The translations under genes were made by a program, and so were the position numbers. A DNA stretch of 42,047 bases from a virus. Location of the stretch: the IMG/VR virus record IMGVR_UViG_3300045988_015706, one strand, 5' to 3'. Each line of letters opens with the position of its first letter. The stretch's first letter is position 1. Positions 4,901-39,793 of this stretch are shown piece by piece. The notes beneath the pieces are model-generated. The model was given only the letters and a program-made list of their open reading frames with translations, had not been told where the DNA came from and ran no database searches.

Positions 4901-6626
4901 ACTCTTCATTACCTACAAACTTGGAAGGGGTTACACCATTCTCAATAGCCTGACAAATAGCTAGATTGATTTCTGCATCATCATGTCCTAGCTTTCTGAG
5001 ATTATTGAAGCTATCTCTATAGCCTGACTCAAAGTTCTCAAAGTCAATCTGAGCGGCTCTAAGTTTCTCCTCTACAGTCTGCCCTTGGAATCTAGTTGCA
5101 TAGTGAACACCGTTCTCATCCACATAACCAGAACCACGATCTACAAAGACAGACTCACAGAACTTTCTAAAGTTAGTAGACTCAAGAGCCTGAAAGACAC
5201 CCTTAGTAGACACAAGGGGGACTCTGCGTTCGATGTTGTCAAGAAGGTTGTTCAAAGACGTAGCGACCTTAGTGGAACCTCCAATACCATCAAAGACCTC
5301 AGAAGGAAGATCCTTACCTGCCTCCTGATATTCCCTGATGATGCTAGCTCTTCGTGCAGTGTCTCCCACATAATGACCTCCCTTGCCTAGGCCCTTGAAT
5401 GCAAATTCAATACCTGCACCAAACATGGCACCAACAAGCATGTCTTCCATGAGGTCATGTTCTGCACCAGACACATAGGTATCAATCTGGTTAGACACAG
5501 CACCCAAAGCGGCACCTGTGAGCACCCTGCCTGCCATACCATACGCACCAAGCGCTGGAACATAAGACAAAGGATCCACAACCGCACCACCAATAGAGGA
5601 AGTGATCGAGGAGAACCAACCGGCTTTAGCTTCAGCCTCTCTATACTTGATTACTTCCTCATTGATATTAAGCCTTTCTTCGACATCCTCCATCGAAGTA
5701 GCGCCATTGAGTACAGCATAGTACCTATCCATATTGTACCCTACCTTGCCTAGGATTTCACCCCTTTGTTCATCCGTAGGGGCAAACTGTTCACCAAAGA
5801 TGCTTCCGTCAGCAAAGGACATCCTAAGGTATGTAGGGACATAACCATGCTTCAAGCCGCCCGTAAAACCGACCTGAGGCTCATCCGATGTATCCTGAGA
5901 AGGGTCATAGACATAACGATTGTCAGCCCAACGCTTTGAGCGAAAACTGATACCGAGAAGTCTACTCCTAGTAGTATTGGCAAGAGCCACCTTTACAGCA
6001 TCCTCATCAATAGGATCCTTGATAAAGGGCTTGATCTCCTTAGATGCCTCAGGCAAATCAAGGTTAGTAAATACAGGCTTCCTGTCAATCAAGGACTCCT
6101 CAGAAGTAGCCAAAGATTTCTCAAGAGGCTCCTGCTTAGGAGGCTCACTCGGATTAACGGTGGGGACAGGCTCATTTACCTTCTGTTCTCCCCACCTGTC
6201 ATCATCACCGATGGTGTCAACGTAATTCCAAGTTTCCTTAGGGAGCTTTTTATAGTTACCCTTAAGGTAATTCTTCATTGCGGCAGTGCCACCATTGTAC
6301 ATAGCCAATGCCGCATATTGGTTGCCCTTAGCGTACTTAAGGTTATCCTTCATAATACGACCTGCAAGGTCGATGTTAAAGAAGGGATCCTTAAGGGTGC
6401 TAAGGTCGGTCACACCATAAGCCTTTGCAGTTTTAGGCATGATCTGACCAACACCCATAGCACCTGCACGAGACACAGCGTTAGGGTTAAATCGTGATTC
6501 TTGATACAGTTGTCGCCTGAATAAGGTATGGTTCAAGCCATATCTTTCAGCAGTATCCTTAATGATACTATCAAAGGGATGCTCCGTATTCTCGAAGTCA
6601 CCCCAAGCACTACGTCTAGGATTCAT
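1962..6626 (-). CDS. Internal virion (core) protein, gp16-like, with an N-terminal lytic transglycosylase domain
   Basis: 1554 aa. The N-terminus has SLT signatures (QESRFNPNAVSRAGAMGVGQIMPKTA...AMYNGG). It has a long K/E-rich coiled-coil centre and sits last in the 14-15-16 core gene series. Confidence 0.85.
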   Translation of the reverse strand: MNPRRSAWGDFENTEHPFDSIIKDTAERYGLNHTLFRRQLYQESRFNPNAVSRAGAMGVGQIMPKTAKAYGVTDLSTLKDPFFNIDLAGRIMKDNLKYAKGNQYAALAMYNGGTAAMKNYLKGNYKKLPKETWNYVDTIGDDDRWGEQKVNEPVPTVNPSEPPKQEPLEKSLATSEESLIDRKPVFTNLDLPEASKEIKPFIKDPIDEDAVKVALANTTRSRLLGISFRSKRWADNRYVYDPSQDTSDEPQVGFTGGLKHGYVPTYLRMSFADGSIFGEQFAPTDEQRGEILGKVGYNMDRYYAVLNGATSMEDVEERLNINEEVIKYREAEAKAGWFSSITSSIGGAVVDPLSYVPALGAYGMAGRVLTGAALGAVSNQIDTYVSGAEHDLMEDMLVGAMFGAGIEFAFKGLGKGGHYVGDTARRASIIREYQEAGKDLPSEVFDGIGGSTKVATSLNNLLDNIERRVPLVSTKGVFQALESTNFRKFCESVFVDRGSGYVDENGVHYATRFQGQTVEEKLRAAQIDFENFESGYRDSFNNLRKLGHDDAEINLAICQAIENGVTPSKFVGNEEFSKIVESTKDFLQKTSKVGQRGGYVPRVSDPRKVGDLFDPKLPRGPQVERLVDELSHALVDGAVHKPEVRQRILDYYKKNVYDKLKAEREAQIAEQDKKKDIKYQKVAKASNKIISDKAAQASRSIERIQERGDARGDNLADKYNELEPAYNKAKNKISEDISNDLEKAEADYNKAVKEAKAKSEKKTKELEKEYNKLDKTSDADIDAEINKEIERLRKEAELKKELAKAKAETEGQANAAQKRYDKYVSTTLVERAKKLKENALKAREAKKEALLEAIEAEEQRLKNILESKKESYEARVEGIQKRESERLKELEKKLVKDRDSIIEKIEAVEKETANKIKAKEREVSEVQRQQHKAQDMVRQEKFEDNLEPLPDEPDWVDVLEWMQKEAREDALGWIDQGTSMGRAIITDGNIANIKYDPEVTRIPWDTSVATRSGVSIDKLRRDPLEAVRMHHNKVIGDNILLSYGCENLGDFESMLGKMWSEEVNSAVGGRVDAKKFAQAQEQLINMIYNKHHSMSDVNSSWLGAMADVIRNLTFFSKNAMMGMANLFEQGEAIKHYGALQFFKGVPLVRELFDNWAKNGMTNAEIRQAQSLIFGMSVRETGLLRDIATESFEKQLRRFNGDKAKSILVAATDTLAQASPFTKFIQNTENSIVEASQGMFLGELIQYAHNKSISKKGFLNKELMQRNGISQENFDNLLKILKESTTVGKNKEITIDNLDAILSKDPAALATLRRMGDYVAHEVIQKNTLGDTFLWEGAQKNPFMQLLLQFKTFALRSYDKRLKKILGRMAEGDALGQAYSIFLSTALGTVGALTNTLINTAGMDEEQRKEYLKKTLKYDSEEGLTLDTAFQAGINGVMRSSVFAFPSLLLNTAGVNPDVKTTTEGFSSQKEKDELYGGFDADKWFRDLAPAYSTIKSFMDIAGYSANVARMTGDENFTDEQLENHKEKAVRAIRNSTNIPFLKWGLYNTLSDKGQ

Positions 6627-24850: not shown

Positions 24851-24876
24851 TCTCCCTAGGAGTATTGATTTTATTC
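24851..24876 (-). promoter_or_regulatory. Phage RNAP promoter in front of the spanin/tRNA unit
   Basis: The minus strand reads GAATAAAATCAATACTCCTA|GGGAGAGAGTATG. Predicted +1 is 24856, only 10 nt before the spanin ATG. It overlaps the last codons of the amidase gene. Confidence 0.75.
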
Positions 24877-27162: not shown

Positions 27163-27189
27163 CTCTCCCTAGGAGTATGGATTTTATTA
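27163..27189 (-). promoter_or_regulatory. Phage RNAP promoter (proximal copy, upstream of the SSB gene)
   Basis: TAATAAAATCCATACTCCTA|GGGAGAGTAACCAAGCCTCCCTAGG. Predicted +1 is 27169. The transcript begins with a GGGAG...CUCCC stem-loop. Confidence 0.85.
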
Positions 27190-27213: not shown

Positions 27214-27240
27214 CTCTCCCTAGGAGTATGGATTTTATTA
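27214..27240 (-). promoter_or_regulatory. Phage RNAP promoter (distal copy, 8 nt after the RNAP stop codon)
   Basis: Identical to 27163-27189. Predicted +1 is 27220. Confidence 0.85.
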
Positions 27241-27247
27241 GTTGGGG

Positions 27248-29884
27248 TTAGCTAAAGGCGTACATGGACTCCTTGACTCGCTCAAGATCAAGGTTTCCCT
27301 TAGAGGGAATCTCAGGGAGCTTGTCGACCATCTTAGGAGACAAAAGGTTTTCAATGTGGTCATGAAGATCCTGCAGTACATCATTCTTGCTGTAGGTATC
27401 TACAAACACTTCCCTAACGGTCGTGAACATGATGTCACCATGTCCTGCAGGTGCCCCATAGGAGTCATGAATCATCGCAAAGGACTTAACCCCCTTGTCG
27501 ACACAAGAGCACACCGTAAGCATCAAATGGGACGCATCCATGCTATGGACATAGTTGGGTGCAATACCCTGCTTCTGCTTTCGGGTGTCAATCTCGGGGG
27601 TACTTTCGTACACCACGGGGTTGATAGAGGCACCTTCCTCAATCTGGCTGTCTTCCTTGAACGGCTCCTTGACTCGAATGGTTCCAGTAGTAAACGTCCT
27701 GAGTTGCTTGAGCACAACTTTGTTGTACTTCTGTTTTACAGGGAATCCTGCAGGGGTAATCCAATAGGTAGGCAGACTTTGACCGTTAATGTCCTTGTCC
27801 TGAGCGAGGAGGCCACTTGCAACCTGTAGCCAACCCATAGCCTCCACAGCTTTCACTACGACCCCTTGCAGGGCTTCCCAGATCAATCCAGCCATATACC
27901 TAGCGGACTGGCTAGGGCGACTGAAGGCCGTGGGATTCTTTGAAAGAGCGGGGTAAATAGTGTCTTCCAAAACCTGTTCGGCAAAGCCAAATTTACTAGA
28001 GCCATAGCAAAGCGTCATGGTGCTACGCTTAGTCACCTTACGGGTAACTCCGTGCTTGAGCCATTCCGTGGCCATACTGCGGGTGCCCTTCTTCAGGTAA
28101 TCGTCACCGTCTTCAGTTTTAGCCATGGTGTCGTCGGTACCATTGTCATAGTCCTTTTTAAGGAGTTCGGTGACCTTGATAGCGACAATGCCATAGATGT
28201 CATGAACATGATCGTCAGGCATGAGGTTGACAGCTTCCCCACCGACTTCATCCCTTAGCATCGCAGAAAAATGCTGTAAGCCAGAGCAGGAGCCATCAAA
28301 GGCAATCGGGAGGTGAGACACGTAAGAGTCACCCTTATCCAGATAGTCCGCCCACTCAAAGCAGAATGCAAGGAATTCCCAAGGTGAATCCGTCTCAGTC
28401 CATCGGAGATCCTGCAAGGGATCCTTGGCAATAGACAGAATCATGTCGGTGTTCTCATAGACCCAAGCAATACGCTCTTCAAAGGGTTTCTTGTCAAGGC
28501 CGTAGCAGTTAGCACCCTGAAAGGCCAGCCAAGTATGCCCATTCTCACCAAGAGGCACCCCCTCGGCAAACTCGAGTAGCGACTTAGTAAAGTCGTTGCC
28601 TTGAGGGCTCAACTGGGTCAAGGGATAGACACGACCACGGAAATCAAGATTGTGGGGGAAATAAATTTCCATGTCGTCCTTGTAGGTGTTTGCCAGTGCT
28701 AGGACACCATTGACAAGATAACGCTTGCTCTTACGCTTATTGTCGTCTTGATAGTAGTGCACCATAGCACTTCGCCAATCACGATGGACCTCCTCGCTAG
28801 TGTCTGCCTCTGCAGGCCTCATAGGAGGCTCCGCAGGGATCGCAGAGGGCATCTCAAGGCCCTCAGGAATGTGAGCCCATGAGCACACCTCATTGGCCAC
28901 GTCGAGCACTCTACGATTGATCCTCCAAGCCGTAGACTGGATGGCATTGACGGCCTTATACACGTTAGGCATGTCAACCTCATCGTAGAGCTGTGCACAC
29001 TCCTTAGAGGGCATTCTAACAAGCTGTATGGGTTTCTTAAGGTTGATCAGGTAACCACCATCAAAAGGGGTAGTCCACGACTTAGGAGGGATCACCATGG
29101 GCCGATTTTGGAACATGAGACTAGCCGTTTCCTTATCCTCGTGTTCCAAATACGTCAACACGTCAGGGTCAAGACAGAAAATGTAATGTACGTTTTTGTT
29201 GTCACTCATGGTTTTCTCAAGGGCGCCTAAGCCAGTAGACACGATGAAAATATCTACCAACTTAAGACCTACTTGCACTCTATTAGCGTTACCCCACTTG
29301 TTCCATCTCTTGAGTCTCTTTTCGTCTGCAAGGATTTTTTCTTTGTTTTCAACATAGCGCTTTTTGAACTGCATGGAAATACGCTTATCAAGCCCTGCAT
29401 TGAACCTGCTAAGCTCTTTCTTGTCCATGGTTGCAACTACCATCTTGAATCGAAGTTCATCCTCAATAGCTTCACCAATTGCAGAGGACAATTTGGTTAA
29501 AGACACGATTCCAAGGGAATTTTCAATGATGGTTCTAATTGCAATGAACGCGATTTCTTCGGTCGACAGAGCCCGAATGAGGGATGCCATCACGTGACGC
29601 TTACCGGGCTTTCCAGTATCAACATCCTTAAACCACTTGTCAAGGGCCTTAGTCATGACAGGGATGGCTTCACTGATCAAGACACGACTTGCACCCATAT
29701 TACCAATAGTACCGCTTTCAATGGCCTTATTACGCTTAGACATGAAAGCATTGAAGGCATTTTCCTTGCTTTCAAGTTCTAATTCAATTTCCCTGTCTAC
29801 ACGGGCTTTGCCGTATTTAAGACAAAGCTCATCGTATTCATTTTCACCATCAATTCTAAAACTATTCAATTTATCATAAGACAT
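27248..29884 (-). CDS. Single-subunit DNA-directed RNA polymerase (T7 gp1-like)
   Basis: 878 aa. Conserved T7-RNAP blocks include ...PIAFDGSCSGLQHFSAMLRDE..., ...VTKRSTMTLCYGS..., ...NYVHSMDASHL..., ...FAMIHDSYG..., and the C-terminus ...SMYAFS (T7 ends ..DFAFA). Confidence 0.98.
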   Translation of the reverse strand: MSYDKLNSFRIDGENEYDELCLKYGKARVDREIELELESKENAFNAFMSKRNKAIESGTIGNMGASRVLISEAIPVMTKALDKWFKDVDTGKPGKRHVMASLIRALSTEEIAFIAIRTIIENSLGIVSLTKLSSAIGEAIEDELRFKMVVATMDKKELSRFNAGLDKRISMQFKKRYVENKEKILADEKRLKRWNKWGNANRVQVGLKLVDIFIVSTGLGALEKTMSDNKNVHYIFCLDPDVLTYLEHEDKETASLMFQNRPMVIPPKSWTTPFDGGYLINLKKPIQLVRMPSKECAQLYDEVDMPNVYKAVNAIQSTAWRINRRVLDVANEVCSWAHIPEGLEMPSAIPAEPPMRPAEADTSEEVHRDWRSAMVHYYQDDNKRKSKRYLVNGVLALANTYKDDMEIYFPHNLDFRGRVYPLTQLSPQGNDFTKSLLEFAEGVPLGENGHTWLAFQGANCYGLDKKPFEERIAWVYENTDMILSIAKDPLQDLRWTETDSPWEFLAFCFEWADYLDKGDSYVSHLPIAFDGSCSGLQHFSAMLRDEVGGEAVNLMPDDHVHDIYGIVAIKVTELLKKDYDNGTDDTMAKTEDGDDYLKKGTRSMATEWLKHGVTRKVTKRSTMTLCYGSSKFGFAEQVLEDTIYPALSKNPTAFSRPSQSARYMAGLIWEALQGVVVKAVEAMGWLQVASGLLAQDKDINGQSLPTYWITPAGFPVKQKYNKVVLKQLRTFTTGTIRVKEPFKEDSQIEEGASINPVVYESTPEIDTRKQKQGIAPNYVHSMDASHLMLTVCSCVDKGVKSFAMIHDSYGAPAGHGDIMFTTVREVFVDTYSKNDVLQDLHDHIENLLSPKMVDKLPEIPSKGNLDLERVKESMYAFS

Positions 29885-30033: not shown

Positions 30034-30060
30034 CTCTCCCTAGGAGTATGGATTTTATTA
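30034..30060 (-). promoter_or_regulatory. Phage RNAP promoter immediately upstream of the RNAP gene itself
   Basis: TAATAAAATCCATACTCCTA|GGGAGAGGGTG is a perfect match to the 27.2-kb copies through +7. Predicted +1 is 30040, 156 nt upstream of the RNAP ATG. Confidence 0.85.
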
Positions 30061-31632: not shown

Positions 31633-31914
31633 TTAGGCTAGCCAGATACGGACACACTCAGCATAGGTGCCCGTGATCTCGTCTTTACAGAAGACAGGGT
31701 TAATCGTCCCGTCTTCCTCTTCGTCGACGATGATGGAGCGTCCTTGCACTACATCCTCATCAAACTGGGCGACCATAGCGGCCTCTCCGCAACTCTCAGG
31801 GGCATCCAAGGGAATGATACCCGTGTAGTCCCCATTGATGAGAGCAGGCAGTGCCCATTCGGCGACCATGTAGGACGGGCATGCGTCCATCATCTTTCGA
31901 ACCTGTGCATTCAT
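31633..31914 (-). CDS. Hypothetical early protein (acidic, 93 aa)
   Basis: ORF with an AAGGAG SD preceded by the CAGCTAGCTG-T-GCTAGC element. GC-rich codon usage. Confidence 0.65.
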   Translation of the reverse strand: MNAQVRKMMDACPSYMVAEWALPALINGDYTGIIPLDAPESCGEAAMVAQFDEDVVQGRSIIVDEEEDGTINPVFCKDEITGTYAECVRIWLA

Positions 31915-32009: not shown

Positions 32010-32474
32010 TTAGCAGAAGGCAAGCTCCTTGTATTTCTTGGAAAGCTCCTTAGCATCAATCATGTACACCCCGTAAAGCGTGGTGATTGTCTCACCGCCG
32101 TTTTCCCTCCAGTATCCTTCGAAATCAAAGAACTTGAGGAATAACTCATCAATGTCAAGACCGTTGCGGACAGCAAGGCCATAGCCCTTGTCTGCATCGT
32201 CCCTGATCTCGGGGAGTCTCCCGAGGAGCTTGAGACAGCCCGGATTGGTTGCGATGACGACGGCCATGTCAAGAGCCATGCCCTCATTGAGGCAGGCGCC
32301 GAGGAAGCACCAGCGGAAACCATCAGGAACATAGACAGGCTCTAAGGCCTTCTCGATGACCTTCATGCAAGTTTCGGGATACAGCACCATATGGGCGCCT
32401 ACTTCCTTGGAGAGTCGGTCGAGAGGCACGTCGTTGCGTTTTTTGGCGTGGGCGAGGAATTCATTGAAGTTCAT
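32010..32474 (-). CDS. Hypothetical early protein (154 aa)
   Basis: ORF with a GGAG SD preceded by CAGCTAGCT-C-GCTAGC. GC-rich. I recognise no motif. Confidence 0.7.
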   Translation of the reverse strand: MNFNEFLAHAKKRNDVPLDRLSKEVGAHMVLYPETCMKVIEKALEPVYVPDGFRWCFLGACLNEGMALDMAVVIATNPGCLKLLGRLPEIRDDADKGYGLAVRNGLDIDELFLKFFDFEGYWRENGGETITTLYGVYMIDAKELSKKYKELAFC

Positions 32475-32560: not shown

Positions 32561-33013
32561 TTAGAGATTGTACCACACAAGCCCCAGCGTTGCAAGTGTG
32601 GTGAGGATATTAACCATCACCATGCCCCCCACCATCTTGAGGGTGTCCAGAAGATCGGTGTCATCCTGTTCGGGATCAACAGCGGGGGCCTCGACCTTAG
32701 CAGGTGCATAGCGGTGCTGTGCGACATCCTGCGAGGCCTCGAGGAATTCGGAGAGCATCTCAAGGAGCTCGGCGAGGATCGTGGAGGTCTTGAAGTATTC
32801 AACACGACCGCCATTGGTACTGCGGGCCTGAATGGAGTCAATCTTTCCGTTCAGGAATTCCACCGTGTAGCGGCGGGCCGTCTGGTGAGCCCTCCTGCGA
32901 TCCGTGTAGTTGTACTGAACACGGACTCGACCGTAGCCGAGAGACTCCCATCGGAAATCACGGGCGAGATTGCCAGAGGGCAGGGTGATGATGTGAGAGG
33001 ATCGAACAATCAT
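32561..33013 (-). CDS. First early protein, C-terminally membrane-anchored (150 aa)
   Basis: AAAGGAG SD. It is the first ORF downstream of the consensus host promoter at 33117-33089. The C-terminus MVGGMVMVNILTTLATLGLVWYNL is a TM segment. Confidence 0.7.
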   Translation of the reverse strand: MIVRSSHIITLPSGNLARDFRWESLGYGRVRVQYNYTDRRRAHQTARRYTVEFLNGKIDSIQARSTNGGRVEYFKTSTILAELLEMLSEFLEASQDVAQHRYAPAKVEAPAVDPEQDDTDLLDTLKMVGGMVMVNILTTLATLGLVWYNL

Positions 33014-33088
33014 GATGTACTCCTTTAAGTGGTAGCGGTAGTGGTGAAGAACTCTCGATCCGTGAGGATCTGTCTATCCATGCCCTGA

Positions 33089-33117
33089 ATTATAGAGCAC
33101 CCCGAATCACCTGTCAA
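33089..33117 (-). promoter_or_regulatory. Host sigma70-type early promoter P1 (perfect consensus)
   Basis: The minus strand reads TTGACA-ggtgattcggggtgctc-TATAAT, both hexamers perfect with a 17-nt spacer. It lies ~75 nt upstream of the first early ATG. Confidence 0.8.
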
Positions 33118-33296
33118 GCCCTCAAGTGAAAAAATACCGTAAACATGGTATCCCCTCCCCTAGTGTCTCAGCCCTCTCTATATAGAGGCTAGCTAGCTAG
33201 CAGAGGAGCCCTGTGGAGAGCTGTGGAGAGCTATGGTCTACCTAAAGGAGTACCAAAGGATACAAAGCACAGATAATGCCACCCAAAGGCAAACAA

Positions 33297-33310
33297 TTGA
33301 TCTAGATCAA
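33297..33310. promoter_or_regulatory. Perfect 14-bp palindrome TTGAT-CTAG-ATCAA (FNR/CRP-family consensus)
   Basis: Read directly from the sequence. It equals the TTGAT-N4-ATCAA FNR box consensus. On the minus strand, TGgCATTAT (an extended -10-like sequence) follows 16 nt later. Confidence 0.4.
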
Positions 33311-33335
33311 ACCCCATATTGACCCAAATCAACCC

Positions 33336-33367
33336 TGTGGACAACCCTGTGGATAACCTGTGGATAA
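33336..33367 (-). promoter_or_regulatory. Three tandem DnaA-box matches (TTGTCCACA, TTATCCACA, TTATCCACA on the minus strand)
   Basis: On the plus strand: tgtggacaa 33336-33344, tgtggataa 33348-33356, tgtggataa 33359-33367. Spacing is 12 and 11 bp, and all are co-oriented. Confidence 0.6.
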
Positions 33368-33392
33368 CTTGAAAAAACACTGATAAATCAAT

Positions 33393-33422
33393 AGTTTACC
33401 ACAAGTACCCTAAGGATGTCAA
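33393..33422 (-). promoter_or_regulatory. Host sigma70-type early promoter P2
   Basis: The minus strand reads TTGACA-18 nt-TAAACT, with TGg directly upstream of the -10 hexamer (an extended -10). Confidence 0.6.
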
Positions 33423-33438
33423 TAGTGACAAACCCCAC

Positions 33439-33467
33439 TTGACAGCCCTTTGAATCTGTGGTATAAT
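33439..33467 (+). promoter_or_regulatory. Perfect-consensus sigma70 promoter on the PLUS strand (opposite to every gene)
   Basis: TTGACA (33439-44), a 17-nt spacer, TATAAT (33462-67), with TGg giving an extended -10. It is back to back with P2; the two -35 hexamers are separated by 16 bp. Confidence 0.65.
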
Positions 33468-33500
33468 CAAAGACCCCAAAGGACACAGCGGGAGCCCGCA

Positions 33501-33533
33501 GGCACCCACAGGCACCCCCACGGGGGCACCCAC
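33501..33533. repeat. Triple direct repeat GGCACCC(CC)AC
   Basis: ggcacccac 33501-09, ggcacccccac 33511-21, ggcacccac 33525-33. Confidence 0.7.
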
Positions 33534-33615
33534 GCACGTGAACTCCTTAAGTGAGGGTTCACAAATTTGATCAATTTTTATGATCCCCTTGGTTACCTGT
33601 GCTAGCAAGAGCTAG

Positions 33616-33639
33616 CTGTGGATAACCTGTGGATAACTT
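33616..33639 (-). promoter_or_regulatory. Pair of perfect DnaA boxes within a 24-bp exact repeat of 33347-33370
   Basis: ctgtggataacctgtggataactt occurs identically at 33347-33370 and 33616-33639. The boxes are at 33617-25 and 33628-36. Confidence 0.6.
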
Positions 33640-33662
33640 TAAATAAAACCCCTAAGGAACCC

Positions 33663-33706
33663 GTAGCTAGCTTGCTAGCAGTAGCTAGCTTGCTAGCAGT
33701 AGCTAG
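33663..33706. repeat. 2.4 x 18-bp tandem repeat built from GCTAGC palindromes
   Basis: gtagctagcttgctagca occurs twice (33663-80, 33681-98), followed by a partial gtagctag. Confidence 0.9.
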
Positions 33707-33905
33707 ACACATCTAGCAGTAAGGGAACCCAAGGGGGAACTGGAAGTAATCACAAACTAGCAACAAGAGTACGTAGGAGAGCATCAACAGTAGTCACATC
33801 CCCGTTAAACAAAGACATTATAAAGAGGATGATGATAATGATGATTTTGATGGTGATGAATACTTTATTTTTAGTGTTATTGGTATTGTTCATTAAGGTC
33901 ACTCC

Positions 33906-33990
33906 CATAAGGGTCTATAGGCACCTAAGGATTCCCATAAGGGTCTATGGACTCTCATAAGGGTCTATAGATCCCCATAAGGGTCTATAG
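33906..33990. repeat. Four direct copies of cataagggtctat(a/g)g at 30/20/20-bp spacing
   Basis: Copies start at 33906, 33936, 33956 and 33976. The array is flanked by two cctaaggatt copies (33924, 33995). Confidence 0.9.
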
Positions 33991-34060
33991 GTACCCTAAG
34001 GATTTTCTTAAGACTCCATCATCACTGATACCTTTTACTTCTGATACTTTCATTTCTAAC

Positions 34061-34121
34061 AAAAAGGGGGAGCTAGAAAAGACCTATATGTATATCTATA
34101 TATGTCTTTCCTAGCCCCCCC
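34061..34121 (-). terminator. 18-bp RNA hairpin plus U5, starting exactly at +1 of the phiOR-like promoter (T7-type terminator-like, or a small RNA)
   Basis: The minus RNA reads GGGGGGGCUAGGAAAGAC-[20-nt AU loop]-GUCUUUUCUAGCUCCCCC-UUUUUG. It forms 16 Watson-Crick plus 2 G-U pairs. The two G-U positions would be A-C mismatches in a plus-strand RNA. Confidence 0.7.
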
Positions 34122-34141
34122 TAGGAGTATGGATTTTATTC
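34115..34141 (-). promoter_or_regulatory. Phage RNAP promoter downstream of the terminase gene (phiOR-like)
   Basis: GAATAAAATCCATACTCCTA|GGGGGGGCTAGG. Predicted +1 is 34121. It lies 83 nt after the terminase stop and points into the non-coding junction region. Confidence 0.8.
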
Positions 34142-34223
34142 TGAAATACCCTGTTTTCTCTATTACATTGTCTTTATTATTTACTGAACAAGTGTTCAAT
34201 ACTAATAAAGCATATTTCAGTTA

Positions 34224-35516
34224 TCATTTCTTGAACACGTAGCCTTTATCCTTATATCTGTCTACACCATTAGAGGTGTCCTTAGGGCTGTGTTTATCTT
34301 CAGTAACCAGCACACCCCCGATATTGGACGTATAGAATCCATATAGGGACTCCATAGACTCCTCTAGCCATTCTTCAGTTAATTCTTTAATACCTTCATC
34401 AGCATCTACGCCCATGAAGTCCACAAGGTATTTAACTCCGATTGCCAGAGCATCGAGACGGTCATCATGAATAAGGGCACCCCTATCAACAGTGATACGA
34501 GTGAGCTGATAGAAACAAGCATATTTGTAGTCAGATTCGGGTACAGTAGAGTAGTCATTCCTGATGCACTCAGGAGTGACACACATTTTATGGTTAGAGA
34601 TTACAGGTTCAAGAGTGTCGATGATTCGGAGTTCTTTTTGTCCCGTAGACTTGACTTCAGTAACCCCACAGTTACTATAGGTTTTCTTTAGTACAGGTTC
34701 AAAGAGTTTGATGTACATACCATCACCGAAGTTTCCTTCAATGACTACTTCATTGACTTTGTACTTCTTAGCCACCTTAGCTAGCTTATTGAGGACTACA
34801 TCAGAGTAGCCTCCCAATAGACCTCCTACTTCCATGACGTAGATATACCCATTTAGGTAGTAGAGAACAGCATAACCTGTTTCGTCTTTACCACGCCCTG
34901 AGGGGTCAACGCATAGGATCTTATGGGCATACGGGACTACTTCATTGGATGAGGCATGATAGTAGAAGTAAGAATCTCCCTTAAGGCCCATTGTAGGACA
35001 CTCATCAACTGGAACCCTCTTAGAAGGCTCAGGGAGCCACGTGAGCTTCATTGGAGCCTCGTCTAAGGGGAACATACCTACGATGAGGTCACGAAGCCGT
35101 AGAGGGTATTTATCGGCGTCTGAGAGGGCCGTATCAAGCATGAACTGCAGAGCGAAGCCTGCCTTACGATAAGATAGTTCACGCTTCTGTAGATCTTCTT
35201 CAGAGAACCTAAGGGGGTCTGTGGGCTTACCTGCCCAACGCTTAGGGTCCTTGTCGTACTTGTCAGCAATGATAGAGGCCAATCTATCGCCATAGGAGGC
35301 TCTATGAGAATCATCATAGGGGTACCTAGCGGGATAGATTACAGCCGTGTATCCGCGCTCCTGTAGCTCGTTATAGAGGCTCATTTCATTCTGGGGAGTG
35401 CCCAGATAGATGATCTTTTTACCTTCACCAGGCTTTAGGACAGCGTCGAACTCTTTGACAAGTTCAAATAGCTGGTCTCTAAGAACCTGAGTGAAGGAGT
35501 TAGATGGAACTTCCAC
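34224..35516 (-). CDS. Terminase large subunit (T7 gp19-like), exon 2 (nuclease/C-terminal part)
   Basis: It begins VEVPSNSFTQVLRDQLFELVKEFDAVLKPGEGKKIIYLGTPQNEMSLYNELQERGYTAVIYPARYP, colinear with recalled T7 gp19 ...VEIPSNS...LVQEFAALLKP...VIYLGTPQTEMTLYKELE. The track's M is really a GTG Val codon with no SD. Confidence 0.9.
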   Translation of the reverse strand: MEVPSNSFTQVLRDQLFELVKEFDAVLKPGEGKKIIYLGTPQNEMSLYNELQERGYTAVIYPARYPYDDSHRASYGDRLASIIADKYDKDPKRWAGKPTDPLRFSEEDLQKRELSYRKAGFALQFMLDTALSDADKYPLRLRDLIVGMFPLDEAPMKLTWLPEPSKRVPVDECPTMGLKGDSYFYYHASSNEVVPYAHKILCVDPSGRGKDETGYAVLYYLNGYIYVMEVGGLLGGYSDVVLNKLAKVAKKYKVNEVVIEGNFGDGMYIKLFEPVLKKTYSNCGVTEVKSTGQKELRIIDTLEPVISNHKMCVTPECIRNDYSTVPESDYKYACFYQLTRITVDRGALIHDDRLDALAIGVKYLVDFMGVDADEGIKELTEEWLEESMESLYGFYTSNIGGVLVTEDKHSPKDTSNGVDRYKDKGYVFKK

Positions 35517-36296
35517 CTTTATGTTAAGGTAAGGTCGTTAGTCTTACCCCATCGTCTTTTATTTGAGTCTACTGCGTTTTCAGTAGCAGTAACAAACTTA
35601 CAATGATCCCTAGAGTAGAGTCCACAGTTGCCCTTCTTGATGTCCTTATCAAGGTGCATGCTAGAGTCCTTTTCCCATTCTTCATAGCCTTCTACCTCGT
35701 GAATAGTATTCAAGAAGGTAGTAAAGTTATGCCACCTAGGATCTACCTTACAGCCTACATAGCTAGTTTTGTAGTTACCATAAGCTCTCTTAAGCATGTT
35801 AGCCCACAGGTCATAGATCTTGCGGATGATGCTATTAGAGCCTCTAGCAGGGATTCTAATAGGAGACCCAATGAACCCTACACCATAGACCGTAGGTTCC
35901 ATAAAGTCTTCAAACTTACCTGCCTTAATGTTGCAGGTCTGAACATCAATGACTGTACCTGTCTTGACAAACTGAATGACAGCCCTAGGATGCTTAACTT
36001 TACCATTAGGAAGTTTCTGCTTCTTAGTTCTAGACAGGATCTTAATAAGACCCTTAGGAGTTTCGTAAGTTTTGTTAATTTCGTACATAGTTATGTTCCT
36101 TATAATTGACGATGCTTCATATCTCTATGAAGACCAGACTATATCTTATACCAAAAGGTATCCCCATTTTTCGAGTCACTTGACCCTACATAATAGTCGT
36201 TACACCTGCTATAAAGCTCGGCTCGGTATTGTCTTTCCTAGTTAGGACTGAGTTCCACCGAATTTAAGGGGTTTAAAGACGACATGGTTAAAGTTT
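35517..36296 (-). mobile_element. Putative group I intron (780 nt) with an HNH homing-endonuclease ORF
   Basis: Exon 1 ends ..AGACGAU. The intron's 5'-CCAU-GUCGUCU-3' gives P1 (7 bp, U-G at the splice site) and an adjacent P10 (CCAU:GUGG of exon 2). The terminal intron nt is G, and an in-frame stop follows 2 codons into the intron. Confidence 0.7.
35519..36088 (-). CDS. HNH-family homing endonuclease (putative), intron-encoded
   Basis: 189 aa. VYGVGFIG...IYDLWANMLKRAYG...CKVDPRWHNFTTFL... and the C-terminal HLDKD..(9)..YSRDHCKFVTATENAVDSNKR resemble phage HNH/AP2-type homing nucleases. The stop codon is 2 nt from the 3' splice site. Confidence 0.6.
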   Translation of the reverse strand: MYEINKTYETPKGLIKILSRTKKQKLPNGKVKHPRAVIQFVKTGTVIDVQTCNIKAGKFEDFMEPTVYGVGFIGSPIRIPARGSNSIIRKIYDLWANMLKRAYGNYKTSYVGCKVDPRWHNFTTFLNTIHEVEGYEEWEKDSSMHLDKDIKKGNCGLYSRDHCKFVTATENAVDSNKRRWGKTNDLTLT

Positions 36297-37660: not shown

Positions 37661-39793
37661 TTACATACTCTTTCGTTCGTTAATCTCAGCCATCTTGGCA
37701 TCGTTCATTCGGGAGTTACCGTTGATGTTAGAGTATCCCAAATAACCACAGACACGGGAAATGACAGACAGGTTACTAGAGCCACAATAGGGGCACGTAT
37801 TACCCACATTAAAGCTGTGCTGATGACAGTCCTCACAGTAAGCCGCATCAAAGTTCACACCCTGATAGAACCCATGAGCCATACCTCGAAGGATCGTATT
37901 CATGAGAGCGAGTTTGTTCTCTGGGTTGTCGATACGGACATACTGGATGTGCCCACCCTCAATAAGATGGAAAAGCTCAAACTCAAGATCCTGCTTTTCA
38001 AAGGGAGTAATGTCGGCAGACACATGGATATGGAAGGAATTGGTGAAATAGGACTTGCCCTCAAATTCATCCTTAAGGTTATTCTTTGCACAATACTCAT
38101 GGTACTGAGTCATCTGAGTTCCGCAAAGGGACTCTGCAGGGGTACCATAGAGTGCATAGAGATATCCGTCTTCCTTCTTAAACTTCTGCACTTCATCATA
38201 GATGAACTTAACGACATCCTTAGCCGCCTTCTGTCCCTCAGGGGTCTGAAGATCCTTACCCCCAGTAAAGAGGATAGCAAACTCATTCAAGGCAGAGATA
38301 CCAAAAGATGCTGTCATATACTTGGTAAGCTCACCTACCTCATCTTCAGGCTTAAGAAAGCCCTTATAGAAACCTCCCTGACAGAATGCCATAGGATTCG
38401 TGCTAGCCTTAGCATGCTTAATCATATCGTAGCGACGTTTAAGGAATTCTCGAATCTGTTCAAGGTTCACCATAAGCTCTTCCCAGAAGTTACCCTTAGA
38501 TGCCTTATAGATCAACGGGAGGTTGAGAGACACGGCCCCAATGTTGCATCGCCCAACAGACACATACTCGTTAGTCTCAGGATCCTTCCAAGGAGTGAGG
38601 TATGCCCTGCAACCCATCGGATGGATAACACACTGCTTATTCGATGCTCTATAGGTTTCAGACACAGTGCCATTAGGAGCGTTAATAGCCAGAAAATCAG
38701 GGTACATACACTTACTGGAACATTCAACAGCCTTCTCGAACACGTTAGCGTGCTCATCACTGCCGTGTTGTTCCCAATCATAGAGATACACGAGCTTAGG
38801 GAACACAACCTGTTTACCCCCATGGCCTTTCATGCGGGTCTCAAGGATGGTCTCACAAATCACCTCAAGAAACTCCTTGTCATACTCAGGGAGATCATTG
38901 CTCCACTCACCAAACGTAAGCGTAGTGAATGCAAAGTCACCACGAGAACACGGAACAGTGTTTAGCTTCAGTTCAAGAGACTGGAAGCCCTGCCCCAACT
39001 CACGCTTGAGTTCTTGCATAGCCATTGCGCATGCTTCATCGAACTCCATATTGCACTGGTCAAAGTATTTCTTAAACGCATGGTCATACGTTTTCTTAGC
39101 ATACGGGAGGAGCGTCTTGTCAATCTGAGGGATAGTGAATCCACCAAACTGCTGTGCAGTAGCTACAAGGGTGATGTCACCGATCACCTGAAGGGCACTA
39201 AGGACACTCGTAGGCTCCGTATAGGTGACATTGGACATACTAAAGCCACCCTTCAGAACAGTAGCCATGTCAAAGAGACAGCAGTTGATGGATCCAAAGA
39301 TCATGTCTCGAAGGTCATGGATGTAATACTTACCAACCTTAGTAGCCTCTTTCTCTTCCTTAGTGAGGTAGAATTGCTTATACAGTTGCTTAGTCAGATA
39401 GCCCTTAATGAGGGAGCCTTTGGTAGACACAAGGGAACTATCGAAGTTGGCGTTTTCCTTGTCTCCCAAAAGGAGGACAGTGTCTGCCTCATTCTTAACA
39501 GCTTCGAAAGCCTTAGCGTAGGTGTTCTTATAGTCTCTAAACTCCTTATAAGATTCTCCGATCTTCGGTGCGTACTTACAAAGAGCTTCAATGACAATAG
39601 AGTGGAGCTTATCAGTAGGCACCTCAGCATAGTTGCTGTAGACAATGCTCTCGATATAGCCCCTAATCTTACCAATGTCATACTCAGAGTACGTAGCGTT
39701 AGCCCTCTGGGCGGCCTTATGAATAGCTACTTCAATCTTGTCCCAATCCCAGCCTTCGTGGGTACCATCTTTCTTAATTACTTCCAGTTCCAT
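37661..39793 (-). CDS. nrdD: Anaerobic (class III) ribonucleoside-triphosphate reductase
   Basis: 710 aa with an N-terminal ATP-cone-like segment, a C-terminal Zn-ribbon (CEDCHQHS...CPYCGS) and the glycyl-radical motif RVCGYLG. Confidence 0.92.
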   Translation of the reverse strand: MELEVIKKDGTHEGWDWDKIEVAIHKAAQRANATYSEYDIGKIRGYIESIVYSNYAEVPTDKLHSIVIEALCKYAPKIGESYKEFRDYKNTYAKAFEAVKNEADTVLLLGDKENANFDSSLVSTKGSLIKGYLTKQLYKQFYLTKEEKEATKVGKYYIHDLRDMIFGSINCCLFDMATVLKGGFSMSNVTYTEPTSVLSALQVIGDITLVATAQQFGGFTIPQIDKTLLPYAKKTYDHAFKKYFDQCNMEFDEACAMAMQELKRELGQGFQSLELKLNTVPCSRGDFAFTTLTFGEWSNDLPEYDKEFLEVICETILETRMKGHGGKQVVFPKLVYLYDWEQHGSDEHANVFEKAVECSSKCMYPDFLAINAPNGTVSETYRASNKQCVIHPMGCRAYLTPWKDPETNEYVSVGRCNIGAVSLNLPLIYKASKGNFWEELMVNLEQIREFLKRRYDMIKHAKASTNPMAFCQGGFYKGFLKPEDEVGELTKYMTASFGISALNEFAILFTGGKDLQTPEGQKAAKDVVKFIYDEVQKFKKEDGYLYALYGTPAESLCGTQMTQYHEYCAKNNLKDEFEGKSYFTNSFHIHVSADITPFEKQDLEFELFHLIEGGHIQYVRIDNPENKLALMNTILRGMAHGFYQGVNFDAAYCEDCHQHSFNVGNTCPYCGSSNLSVISRVCGYLGYSNINGNSRMNDAKMAEINERKSM

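Follow-up and report, generated by a model that had tools for sequence, protein, structure and literature searches.

Co-oriented DnaA-box arrays in the early, terminal non-coding region of a T7-like phage and their recurrence in other phages

Introduction

In the literature, DnaA boxes on phage DNA are mentioned for T5, for lambda and for predicted phage origins. The T5 boxes were described in 1987 and a model for them was proposed in 2020 (bioRxiv 10.1101/866236). They lie in the left terminal repeat, within its injection-stop region, that is, in the non-coding terminal DNA that enters first, where their role is a proposal; several are consensus boxes, arranged in close pairs with gaps of 2–3 bp, in a lytic phage that has its own replication machinery. 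In lambda, DnaA stimulates pR, and DnaA boxes downstream of pO have been footprinted (PMC3985674). Here we describe two clusters of DnaA boxes in IMG/VR virus record IMGVR_UViG_3300045988_015706, a T7-like phage genome of 42,047 bp (the window, meaning the whole stretch of DNA that was analysed).

The locus resembles each of these systems in part. It shares with T5 the lytic, self-sufficient phage background, the close spacing of consensus boxes and, probably, the location in non-coding terminal DNA. The T5 boxes, however, are placed inside large inverted repeats, about half of them are non-consensus and they are 6–9 kb from the end, whereas the window and the cultured T7-like phages described below have short one-direction tandem arrays of perfect boxes within a few hundred base pairs of the probable end or inside a repeat of 177–292 bp. 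Large inverted repeats (IRD'/IRC' type) were not found around the clusters of the window. As at lambda pR and pO, boxes are found downstream of a host-polymerase promoter on phage DNA, but the lambda boxes are weak, few and tied to ori-lambda activation, whereas those of this T7-like lytic phage are perfect, tandem and placed at about +20. The E. coli oriC has the same 11-mer (in R1 and R4) and the same rule of 2-bp gaps in one orientation; it differs in mixing high- and low-affinity sites, in having two opposed arrays and in its AT-rich unwinding element, while the phage sites are all of high affinity and point in one direction. At the titrating loci datA and mioC, perfect TTATC-type boxes, the type likewise found here, are the best titrators; datA requires an IHF site. 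A weak IHF-like match (gATCAAttgtTTG) close to one of the two clusters (the downstream one, below) was noticed by reading the sequence, no dedicated IHF scan being made, and none was convincing.

The left end of T7 has the same order of elements as the region described here: gene 19, phiOR, gene 19.5, the genome end (with a terminus-like CCCCC..GGGGG element), the leftward promoter A0, the rightward promoters A1–A3 and gene 0.3. T7, SP6, K1-5 and Berlin differ from it in having no DnaA box near the left end (none in the first 1–1.5 kb), and their terminal repeats carry other short repeats. No description of DnaA-box arrays in T7-like terminal repeats or early regions was found in the open-access full-text literature, and this kind of array, present in many unrelated lytic phages, is apparently undescribed so far.

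Results

Position and geometry of the boxes

Four exact copies of TTATCCACA are located on the minus strand, which is the gene strand, at 33348–33356, 33359–33367, 33617–33625 and 33628–33636, and one TTGTCCACA is located at 33336–33344 in the same orientation. They form two clusters. The upstream (U) cluster (33616–33639) consists of two exact boxes, aaGTTATCCACAGGTTATCCACAG, at 33636–33628 and 33625–33617 with a gap of 2 bp. The downstream (D) cluster (33336–33370) consists of exact boxes at 33367–33359 and 33356–33348 followed by TTGTCCACA at 33344–33336, with gaps of 2 and 3 bp. Across both clusters the inter-box gaps of 3, 2 and 2 bp give a phasing of 12, 11 and 11 bp. The 24-mer CTGTGGATAACCTGTGGATAACTT is identical at 33347–33370 and 33616–33639. 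There is no further exact copy of TTATCCACA on either strand of the window, for which the expectation for a 9-mer is about 0.3. No box is found on the opposite strand; all are co-oriented, and the opposed arrays and the mixture of high- and low-affinity sites typical of oriC are absent.

The first-pass annotation had reported clustered co-oriented consensus boxes in a T7-like phage, an exact 24-bp repeat and a clustering beyond chance, all of which are borne out. It had also listed two weaker copies with a TCCACA core. These correspond to CTCTCCACAG, present twice at 33211–33230 on the minus strand; each has two mismatches to the box, the period is 10 bp and, in relatives, the unit belongs to a different repeat family (CCACAG/GCTAGC). 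The pair probably lies outside the DnaA arrays and is not counted here.

Identity of the sites

The repeat unit GTTATCCACAG is the 11-mer of E. coli oriC R1 (ttGTTATCCACAGgg) and R4 (gaGTTATCCACAGta), the flanking bases of these strong boxes included. In the oriC arrays, co-oriented sites exactly 2 bp apart permit cooperative DnaA loading (PMC4451416), and TTATC-type boxes are the best DnaA binders and titrators (PMC5835720). With their gaps of 2–3 bp on one strand, the window boxes fit the spacing rule for cooperative binding.

At least 120 IMG/VR contigs contain the 21-mer doublet, compared to about 0.03 calculated by chance. Among the doublet contigs listed, 105 of 120 are strictly co-oriented (none on the other strand), and in 82 a 250-bp interval holds at least three exact boxes. 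When box spacing was scanned at any gap from 0 to 30 bp, peaks were seen at 2–4, 11–13 and 21–25 bp, corresponding to helical phasing, and neighbouring boxes had the same direction in 138 cases and opposed directions in 18. In variant boxes that stay in phase, the differences concentrate at positions 5, 3 and 1 (35, 21 and 18 cases, respectively) and are very rare at positions 2, 7, 8 and 9 (3, 3, 3 and 0 cases, respectively). This spectrum fits the DnaA consensus TT(A/T)TNCACA, which reinforces the assignment to DnaA. The commonest in-phase variant is TTGTCCACA, the DnaA box of high-GC actinobacteria. The contigs with arrays are phage-like: the arrays adjoin terminase and primase/helicase genes rather than dnaA or dnaN. 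They have no homologues of the early genes of the window phage, which argues for a universal host protein as the binder.

Judged from these features, the sites are very probably real DnaA sites, for which binding is predicted, and DnaA is by far the best candidate binder. The one orientation and the gaps of 2–3 bp strongly imply that a short cooperative DnaA oligomer can assemble at two spots.

Promoters around the boxes

The sole large non-coding stretch of the window (33013–34224, 1.2 kb) separates the terminase stop codon from the first early gene. Because the phage is T7-like, this stretch must hold the collapsed terminal repeat and the early promoters for the host polymerase. In the gene direction, from the terminase side, it contains the stop codon (34224), a phage promoter, four CTATAGACCCTTATGGG repeats, a small open reading frame (ORF), GCTAGC-rich repeats and the U doublet. 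These are followed by a conserved element (33585–33511), the plus-strand promoter (33439–33467), a minus-strand promoter (33422–33393), the D triplet and the promoter at 33117–33089, after which the first early gene starts at 33013. The conserved non-coding element, on the minus strand, has the form gatcataaaaattgatcaaatttgtgaaccCTCAC...(23 nt)...GCCCCCGTGGGGGTGCC and is found clade-wide.

The D cluster occupies approximately +20 to +51 of the promoter at 33422–33393 and thus is situated just downstream of a host-polymerase promoter; the U cluster is not so placed. The promoter itself is a gene-sense early promoter of sigma-70 type (TTGACA-18-TAAACT with an upstream TG), corresponds to T7 A1 and is conserved in all close relatives; in relatives the −10 element is TATACT. 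On the plus strand, the perfect sigma-70 promoter at 33439–33467 (TTGACA-17-TATAAT with TG) points from the genes toward the U cluster, is conserved in four relatives (L012, L100, L093 and L108) and is the analogue of T7 A0, which is annotated at position 224 and is leftward. The strongest early promoter, a perfect TTGACA-17-TATAAT on the minus strand at 33089–33117, is about 70 nt upstream of the first early gene.

The first-pass annotation described the boxes as bracketing the early promoters. The two copies of the 24-mer do enclose the promoters at 33422–33393 and 33439–33467, the GGCACCC repeats and a hairpin (33536–33560). One of the two enclosed promoters points away from the genes, as the leftward A0 of T7 does, and the main consensus promoter at 33117–33089 is outside the bracket, so the description holds only in part.

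Transcription from the plus-strand promoter would give an RNA of about 90 nt (33474–33560) running through the GGCACCC repeats to the hairpin. Its folding is no better than that of shuffled sequences (z = −1.3) and it matches no RNA family.

Possible location of the genome ends

T7, SP6, K1-5 and Berlin share an element of the type (G)TCCCC(C)ATAGGG(G)TGCC about 20–28 nt from the left end. In the window, GCCCCCGTGGGGGTGCCTGTGGG (33527–33505) matches this element and is preceded by CCTCAC (TCTCAC in T7). A match of this type is conserved in the clade with about 87% terminase identity (below), in L167 and L190 and in phage MT835557. This terminus-like element suggests a physical left end near 33556; an alignment to the left ends of T7 and phiEap-1 is suggestive only. 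With the end near 33556, the D cluster would be about 190–220 bp inside the genome and the U cluster about 60–80 bp outside, beside the right-hand copy of the repeat. A second, weaker candidate for the end, AGTTCCCCCTTGGG, is found at about 33730 and would place the U cluster inside the repeat. The boxes are within about 60–220 bp of the terminus-like element, a putative physical end. The contig ends of relatives proved uninformative for mapping the end, as they fall in tandem repeats and represent assembly breaks.

The boxes in relatives

Related terminases are encoded on 516 IMG/VR contigs, 80 of which were fetched. At 95–100% terminase identity both clusters are present in gene sense, with 1–7 copies at U and 1–9 at D. 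In the sister clade with about 87% identity, 1–4 boxes are found at the U position, inverted, with an intrinsic terminator just upstream, and the D cluster is absent. In some genomes of the closest clade (L100/L154, L093/L195 and L153), a unit comprising the −10 element, the initial transcribed region and the boxes is duplicated or triplicated, so that boxes overlie the −35 region of the additional promoters.

The module is therefore accessory: it has been gained or inverted more than once, its copy number changes through slippage and the consensus is maintained. Within the clade it is gained, inverted, expanded and lost quickly. Among relatives with 56–78% terminase identity, boxes are missing except in L190, and the module is dispensable in the wider clade.

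The distant relative L190 has three exact gene-sense boxes and six tandem TTAACCACAgg units (gtTTAACCACAg, 12-bp period, ~2765–2835). These units directly follow the small ORF, and the three exact boxes are located about 350 bp downstream. Phage MT835557 has a single inverted copy of the L190-type variant (TGTGGTTAA) at the U position.

In the sister clade, 7-1-7 palindromes (tGAGAATgaTTCTCAtttgc) that resemble Fur-family boxes (L156, ~6040–6200; L158, ~5650–5800) occupy the early-promoter region where the window phage has the D cluster. Similar palindromes flank the DnaA arrays of the unrelated contigs L104, L107 and L119. These palindromes suggest that early and array regions collect binding sites of host regulators.

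Arrays in other phages

A 36-mer of three tandem boxes matches 247 phage records, many of them podoviruses of 39–46 kb that infect Klebsiella, Escherichia, Enterobacter, Shigella or Proteus, and some of them T5-like phages. Three records have defined ends. The terminal repeat of the Enterobacter phage phiEap-1 (195 bp) contains five exact boxes, that of Shigella phage A7 (177 bp) contains four exact and four one-mismatch boxes, and that of Klebsiella phage ZK1 (292 bp) contains six exact and two one-mismatch boxes. The gene strand of all three has TGTGGATAA, the orientation opposite to that in the window.

At least 73 unrelated groups of viral contigs have helically phased arrays of a similar kind, in many cases next to terminase genes. 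In the diverse contigs about one-third of the arrays adjoin terminase genes and about one-sixth primase or helicase genes, and there is no constant neighbour gene. Arrays are within 150 bp of contig ends in 14 cases, compared to 3.9 expected. Two contigs unrelated to the window, L023 and L094, likewise have a promoter followed by boxes; among the 73 groups, no general association of arrays with sigma-70 promoters was found. At 97 array loci the surrounding AT content shows no strong one-sided peak, only a mild excess on both sides that is typical of intergenic DNA, and a directional AT-rich element beside the arrays was rejected on this basis.

Other features of the genome

The window is a circular assembly with a self-overlap of 55 bases between its two ends, and all its long ORFs are on the minus strand. 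The gene set is T7-like and includes a T7-type RNA polymerase (27248–29884, minus strand), a gp2.5-like single-stranded DNA-binding protein, a gp3-like endonuclease, a gp3.5-like amidase and a terminase. The polymerase shares only about 41% identity with its counterparts in T7/T3-group phages, and its closest matches are uncultured human-gut sequences. Copies of a phage-polymerase promoter (consensus AAATCCATACTCCTAGGGAGA) are found on the minus strand at 34116–34136, 30035–30055, 27215–27235, 27164–27184 and 24851–24871. Two of them (27235 and 27184) directly follow the polymerase gene as a tandem pair, where T7 has its primary origin (phi1.1A/B), and this pair is more likely to be the primary origin than the box region. 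That a T7-type phage would bring its own machinery had been stated beforehand and agrees with the polymerase, the gp2.5-like protein and these origin-like tandem promoters; given the T7-style promoter pair after the polymerase gene, there is no obvious need for DnaA.

The terminase with a T7-type nuclease domain is encoded by a 430-aa ORF (34224–35516, minus strand). The large subunit is apparently split, as a 189-aa ORF without a family match (35519–36088, minus strand) abuts it in another frame; the two sum to approximately the length of T7 gp19. The terminase gene of some relatives (L197–L201) has an insertion of about 1.2 kb. An anaerobic ribonucleotide reductase gene (NrdD; 37661–39793, minus strand) points to an anaerobic gut host without identifying one. 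Its best bacterial matches (50–57% identity) are to contigs labelled Sutterella, Oxalobacter, Hallella and Oscillospiraceae and are ambiguous as to host. The first early gene (32561–33013, minus strand, 150 aa) and the early genes at 32010–32474 and 31633–31914 match no known family.

The phage-promoter copy after the terminase (34116–34136, minus strand) reads AAATCCATACTCCTAGGGGGG (consensus AAATCCATACTCCTAGGG) and corresponds to T7 phiOR. Right after it is a long near-perfect palindrome, ctagggggggctaggaaagacatatatagatatacatataggtcttttctagctccccc (34057–34130), which scores weakly against hairpin RNA models; apart from this, no known RNA family was found in the non-coding region. Four copies of CCCATAAGGGTCTATAG, the repeat that reads CTATAGACCCTTATGGG in gene sense, lie at 33904–33995 with a spacing of 20–30 bp, upstream of the small ORF. 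Relatives have about three to six copies, and the repeat partially resembles the phage promoter core.

The small ORF (33750–33908, minus strand) encodes a hydrophobic protein with the core ...KVFITIKIIIIIILFIMSLFNGDVTTVDALLRTLVASL and has the position of T7 gene 19.5. Its protein sequence is conserved throughout the clade, in relatives with terminase identities as low as about 70%. The AT-rich stretch at 33800–33900, beside which a DnaA-assisted unwinding or origin function had been listed as possible, is coding sequence of this conserved protein and is rejected as an unwinding element.

GCTAGC palindromes are concentrated at 33185–33200 and 33600–33700, with 9 of the 20 in the window located in the 1.2-kb non-coding region. 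They frequently form GCTAGCaaGCTAGC pairs next to CCACAG motifs, in numbers that differ among relatives.

Discussion

As possible roles, the first-pass annotation had listed control of early transcription by DnaA, titration of host DnaA and an unwinding or origin function; comparison with other phages adds a role at the genome end. Our tentative preference is that DnaA blocks or modulates early transcription by the host polymerase on the entering DNA, a reading that is possible rather than probable. Boxes of the R1/R4 type bind both DnaA-ATP and DnaA-ADP with nanomolar affinity. The boxed segment would be the first DNA to reach the cell, and DnaA would occupy its sites constitutively and nearly immediately. 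From about +20 to +51, the D cluster could be a roadblock to, or a modulator of, the first rightward early promoter, and in the duplicated modules the D boxes would in addition cover the −35 region. The U cluster, located beyond the leftward A0-like promoter and the hairpin, may bound leftward transcription toward the genome end, and the strong downstream promoter at 33117–33089 would stay free. The reading is preferred because of the geometry of the D cluster, the co-amplification of promoter and boxes, the palindromes of host-regulator type in the sister clade and the lambda precedent.

Several observations count against transcriptional control. Adjacency to a promoter is missing for the U cluster. 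Since the boxes do not cover the strongest early promoter, they could gate early transcription only in part. Perfect-consensus boxes would always be occupied, which argues against a role as sensors of DnaA-ATP. Relatives with 56–78% terminase identity have no boxes, L190 excepted, and MT835557 (complete, 42.9 kb, about 72% terminase identity, outside the 80 contigs) has the same non-coding architecture and no exact box anywhere. The arrays of phiEap-1, A7 and ZK1, whose ends are defined, fill direct terminal repeats of 177–292 bp and are not promoter-adjacent. Across the 73 independent groups, sigma-70-like promoters are not enriched near arrays in any configuration.

The variation in orientation, number and position would be accommodated if the arrays were a sink, sequestering host DnaA so that new initiation at oriC stops and DnaA-repressed genes are derepressed. 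Orientation relative to the genome is free, with sense arrays in the window clade but antisense ones in the 87% clade, phiEap-1, A7 and ZK1; the copy number is highly variable, the position varies by lineage and the arrays recur in unrelated phages without a constant neighbour gene. All sites have maximal affinity and cooperative spacing, as at efficient titrating loci. There are about 200 DnaA monomers per origin, and plasmids with a few boxes measurably titrate DnaA (PMC5835720). With 5–16 boxes per genome, 100 or more phage genome copies would match or exceed the cellular DnaA pool. A single entering genome, however, titrates nothing, and an effect is expected only after replication, late in a T7-type cycle. 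By the time the phage genome is amplified in T7 and T5, host transcription is already off and host DNA is being degraded. The frequent placement at genome ends and beside terminase genes is also unexplained by sequestration, except as available non-coding space. We consider a sink doubtful.

That placement would be expected if DnaA, bound by the boundary of the terminal repeat, opened or marked the DNA near the end, as a secondary origin, in duplication of the terminal repeat or in processing of the concatemer junction. The arrays of phiEap-1, A7 and ZK1 lie inside the direct terminal repeats, and the U position is fixed just upstream of the terminus-like element whatever the orientation of the boxes. 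The proximity to terminase (about one-third) and to primase or helicase genes (about one-sixth) and the enrichment at contig ends (14 against 3.9) point the same way. On plasmids (P1, F, pSC101 and RK2), DnaA boxes classically serve origins. On the other side, the supposed AT-rich unwinding element is a gene, the arrays show no strong one-sided AT peak and the phage has its origin-like promoter pair after the polymerase gene. Relatives whose ends are organised alike, as well as T7, SP6, K1-5 and Berlin, manage without boxes, which are thus not a core packaging or replication signal, and the physical ends of the window genome are inferred. A function at the genome end therefore seems rather unlikely to us.

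Arrest or anchoring of the entering DNA, in the manner suggested for T5, is less credible still. Membrane-associated DnaA would capture the boxes that enter first and would pause or tether the leading end until early proteins are made. Stepwise genome entry is also known in T7-like phages, and the boxes are within a few hundred base pairs of the probable leading end. The DnaA entry-arrest model for T5 (bioRxiv 10.1101/866236; mentioned in PMC13250531) is itself still a proposal. Moreover, one of the terminus placements leaves the U cluster outside the leading end, relatives can do without the boxes, and the primase-adjacent arrays of other phage types are unlikely to be at a leading end.

It is very improbable that the 11-mer is the operator of a phage-encoded protein or a neutral, microsatellite-type tandem repeat that resembles DnaA boxes. 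In favour of this, the early genes have no family match, the first of them is present in both box-bearing clades and copy number shifts by unit slippage. Against it, at least 73 unrelated contig groups, and cultured phages infecting many hosts, have the identical 11-mer without these early genes, the variants differ in the way that DnaA specificity predicts, and perfect consensus is kept across independently gained and inverted arrays.

We suggest, with similar reserve, that helically phased, one-direction arrays of perfect boxes may represent a cis-element that is widespread at the genome ends of lytic phages and was acquired independently many times. With it, phages whose replication does not depend on DnaA would capture the host initiator for a specific step of infection, and the arrays would be gained, inverted, expanded and lost over short evolutionary times. 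Such an element may span the terminal repeats of T7-like phages, the terminal repeat of T5 and the terminase-proximal regions of uncultured phages. Candidates for this step are that the leading end is arrested or tethered, that genome entry driven by transcription is controlled, or that the DNA end is opened. Among the sequence-specific DNA-binding proteins of bacteria, DnaA is the most conserved, and a phage can thus rely on it in any host. The cultured phages phiEap-1, A7 and ZK1, with 5–8 boxes per terminal repeat, make the question directly testable, and there are natural variants of the window phage that differ only in box number and orientation. If strong arrays have indeed evolved repeatedly at the genome ends and early promoters of lytic phages that replicate with their own machinery, DnaA would have a role that goes beyond current models of T7-type entry, early transcription and takeover, and the answer would bear on the long-standing question of what stops the injection of T5 DNA.

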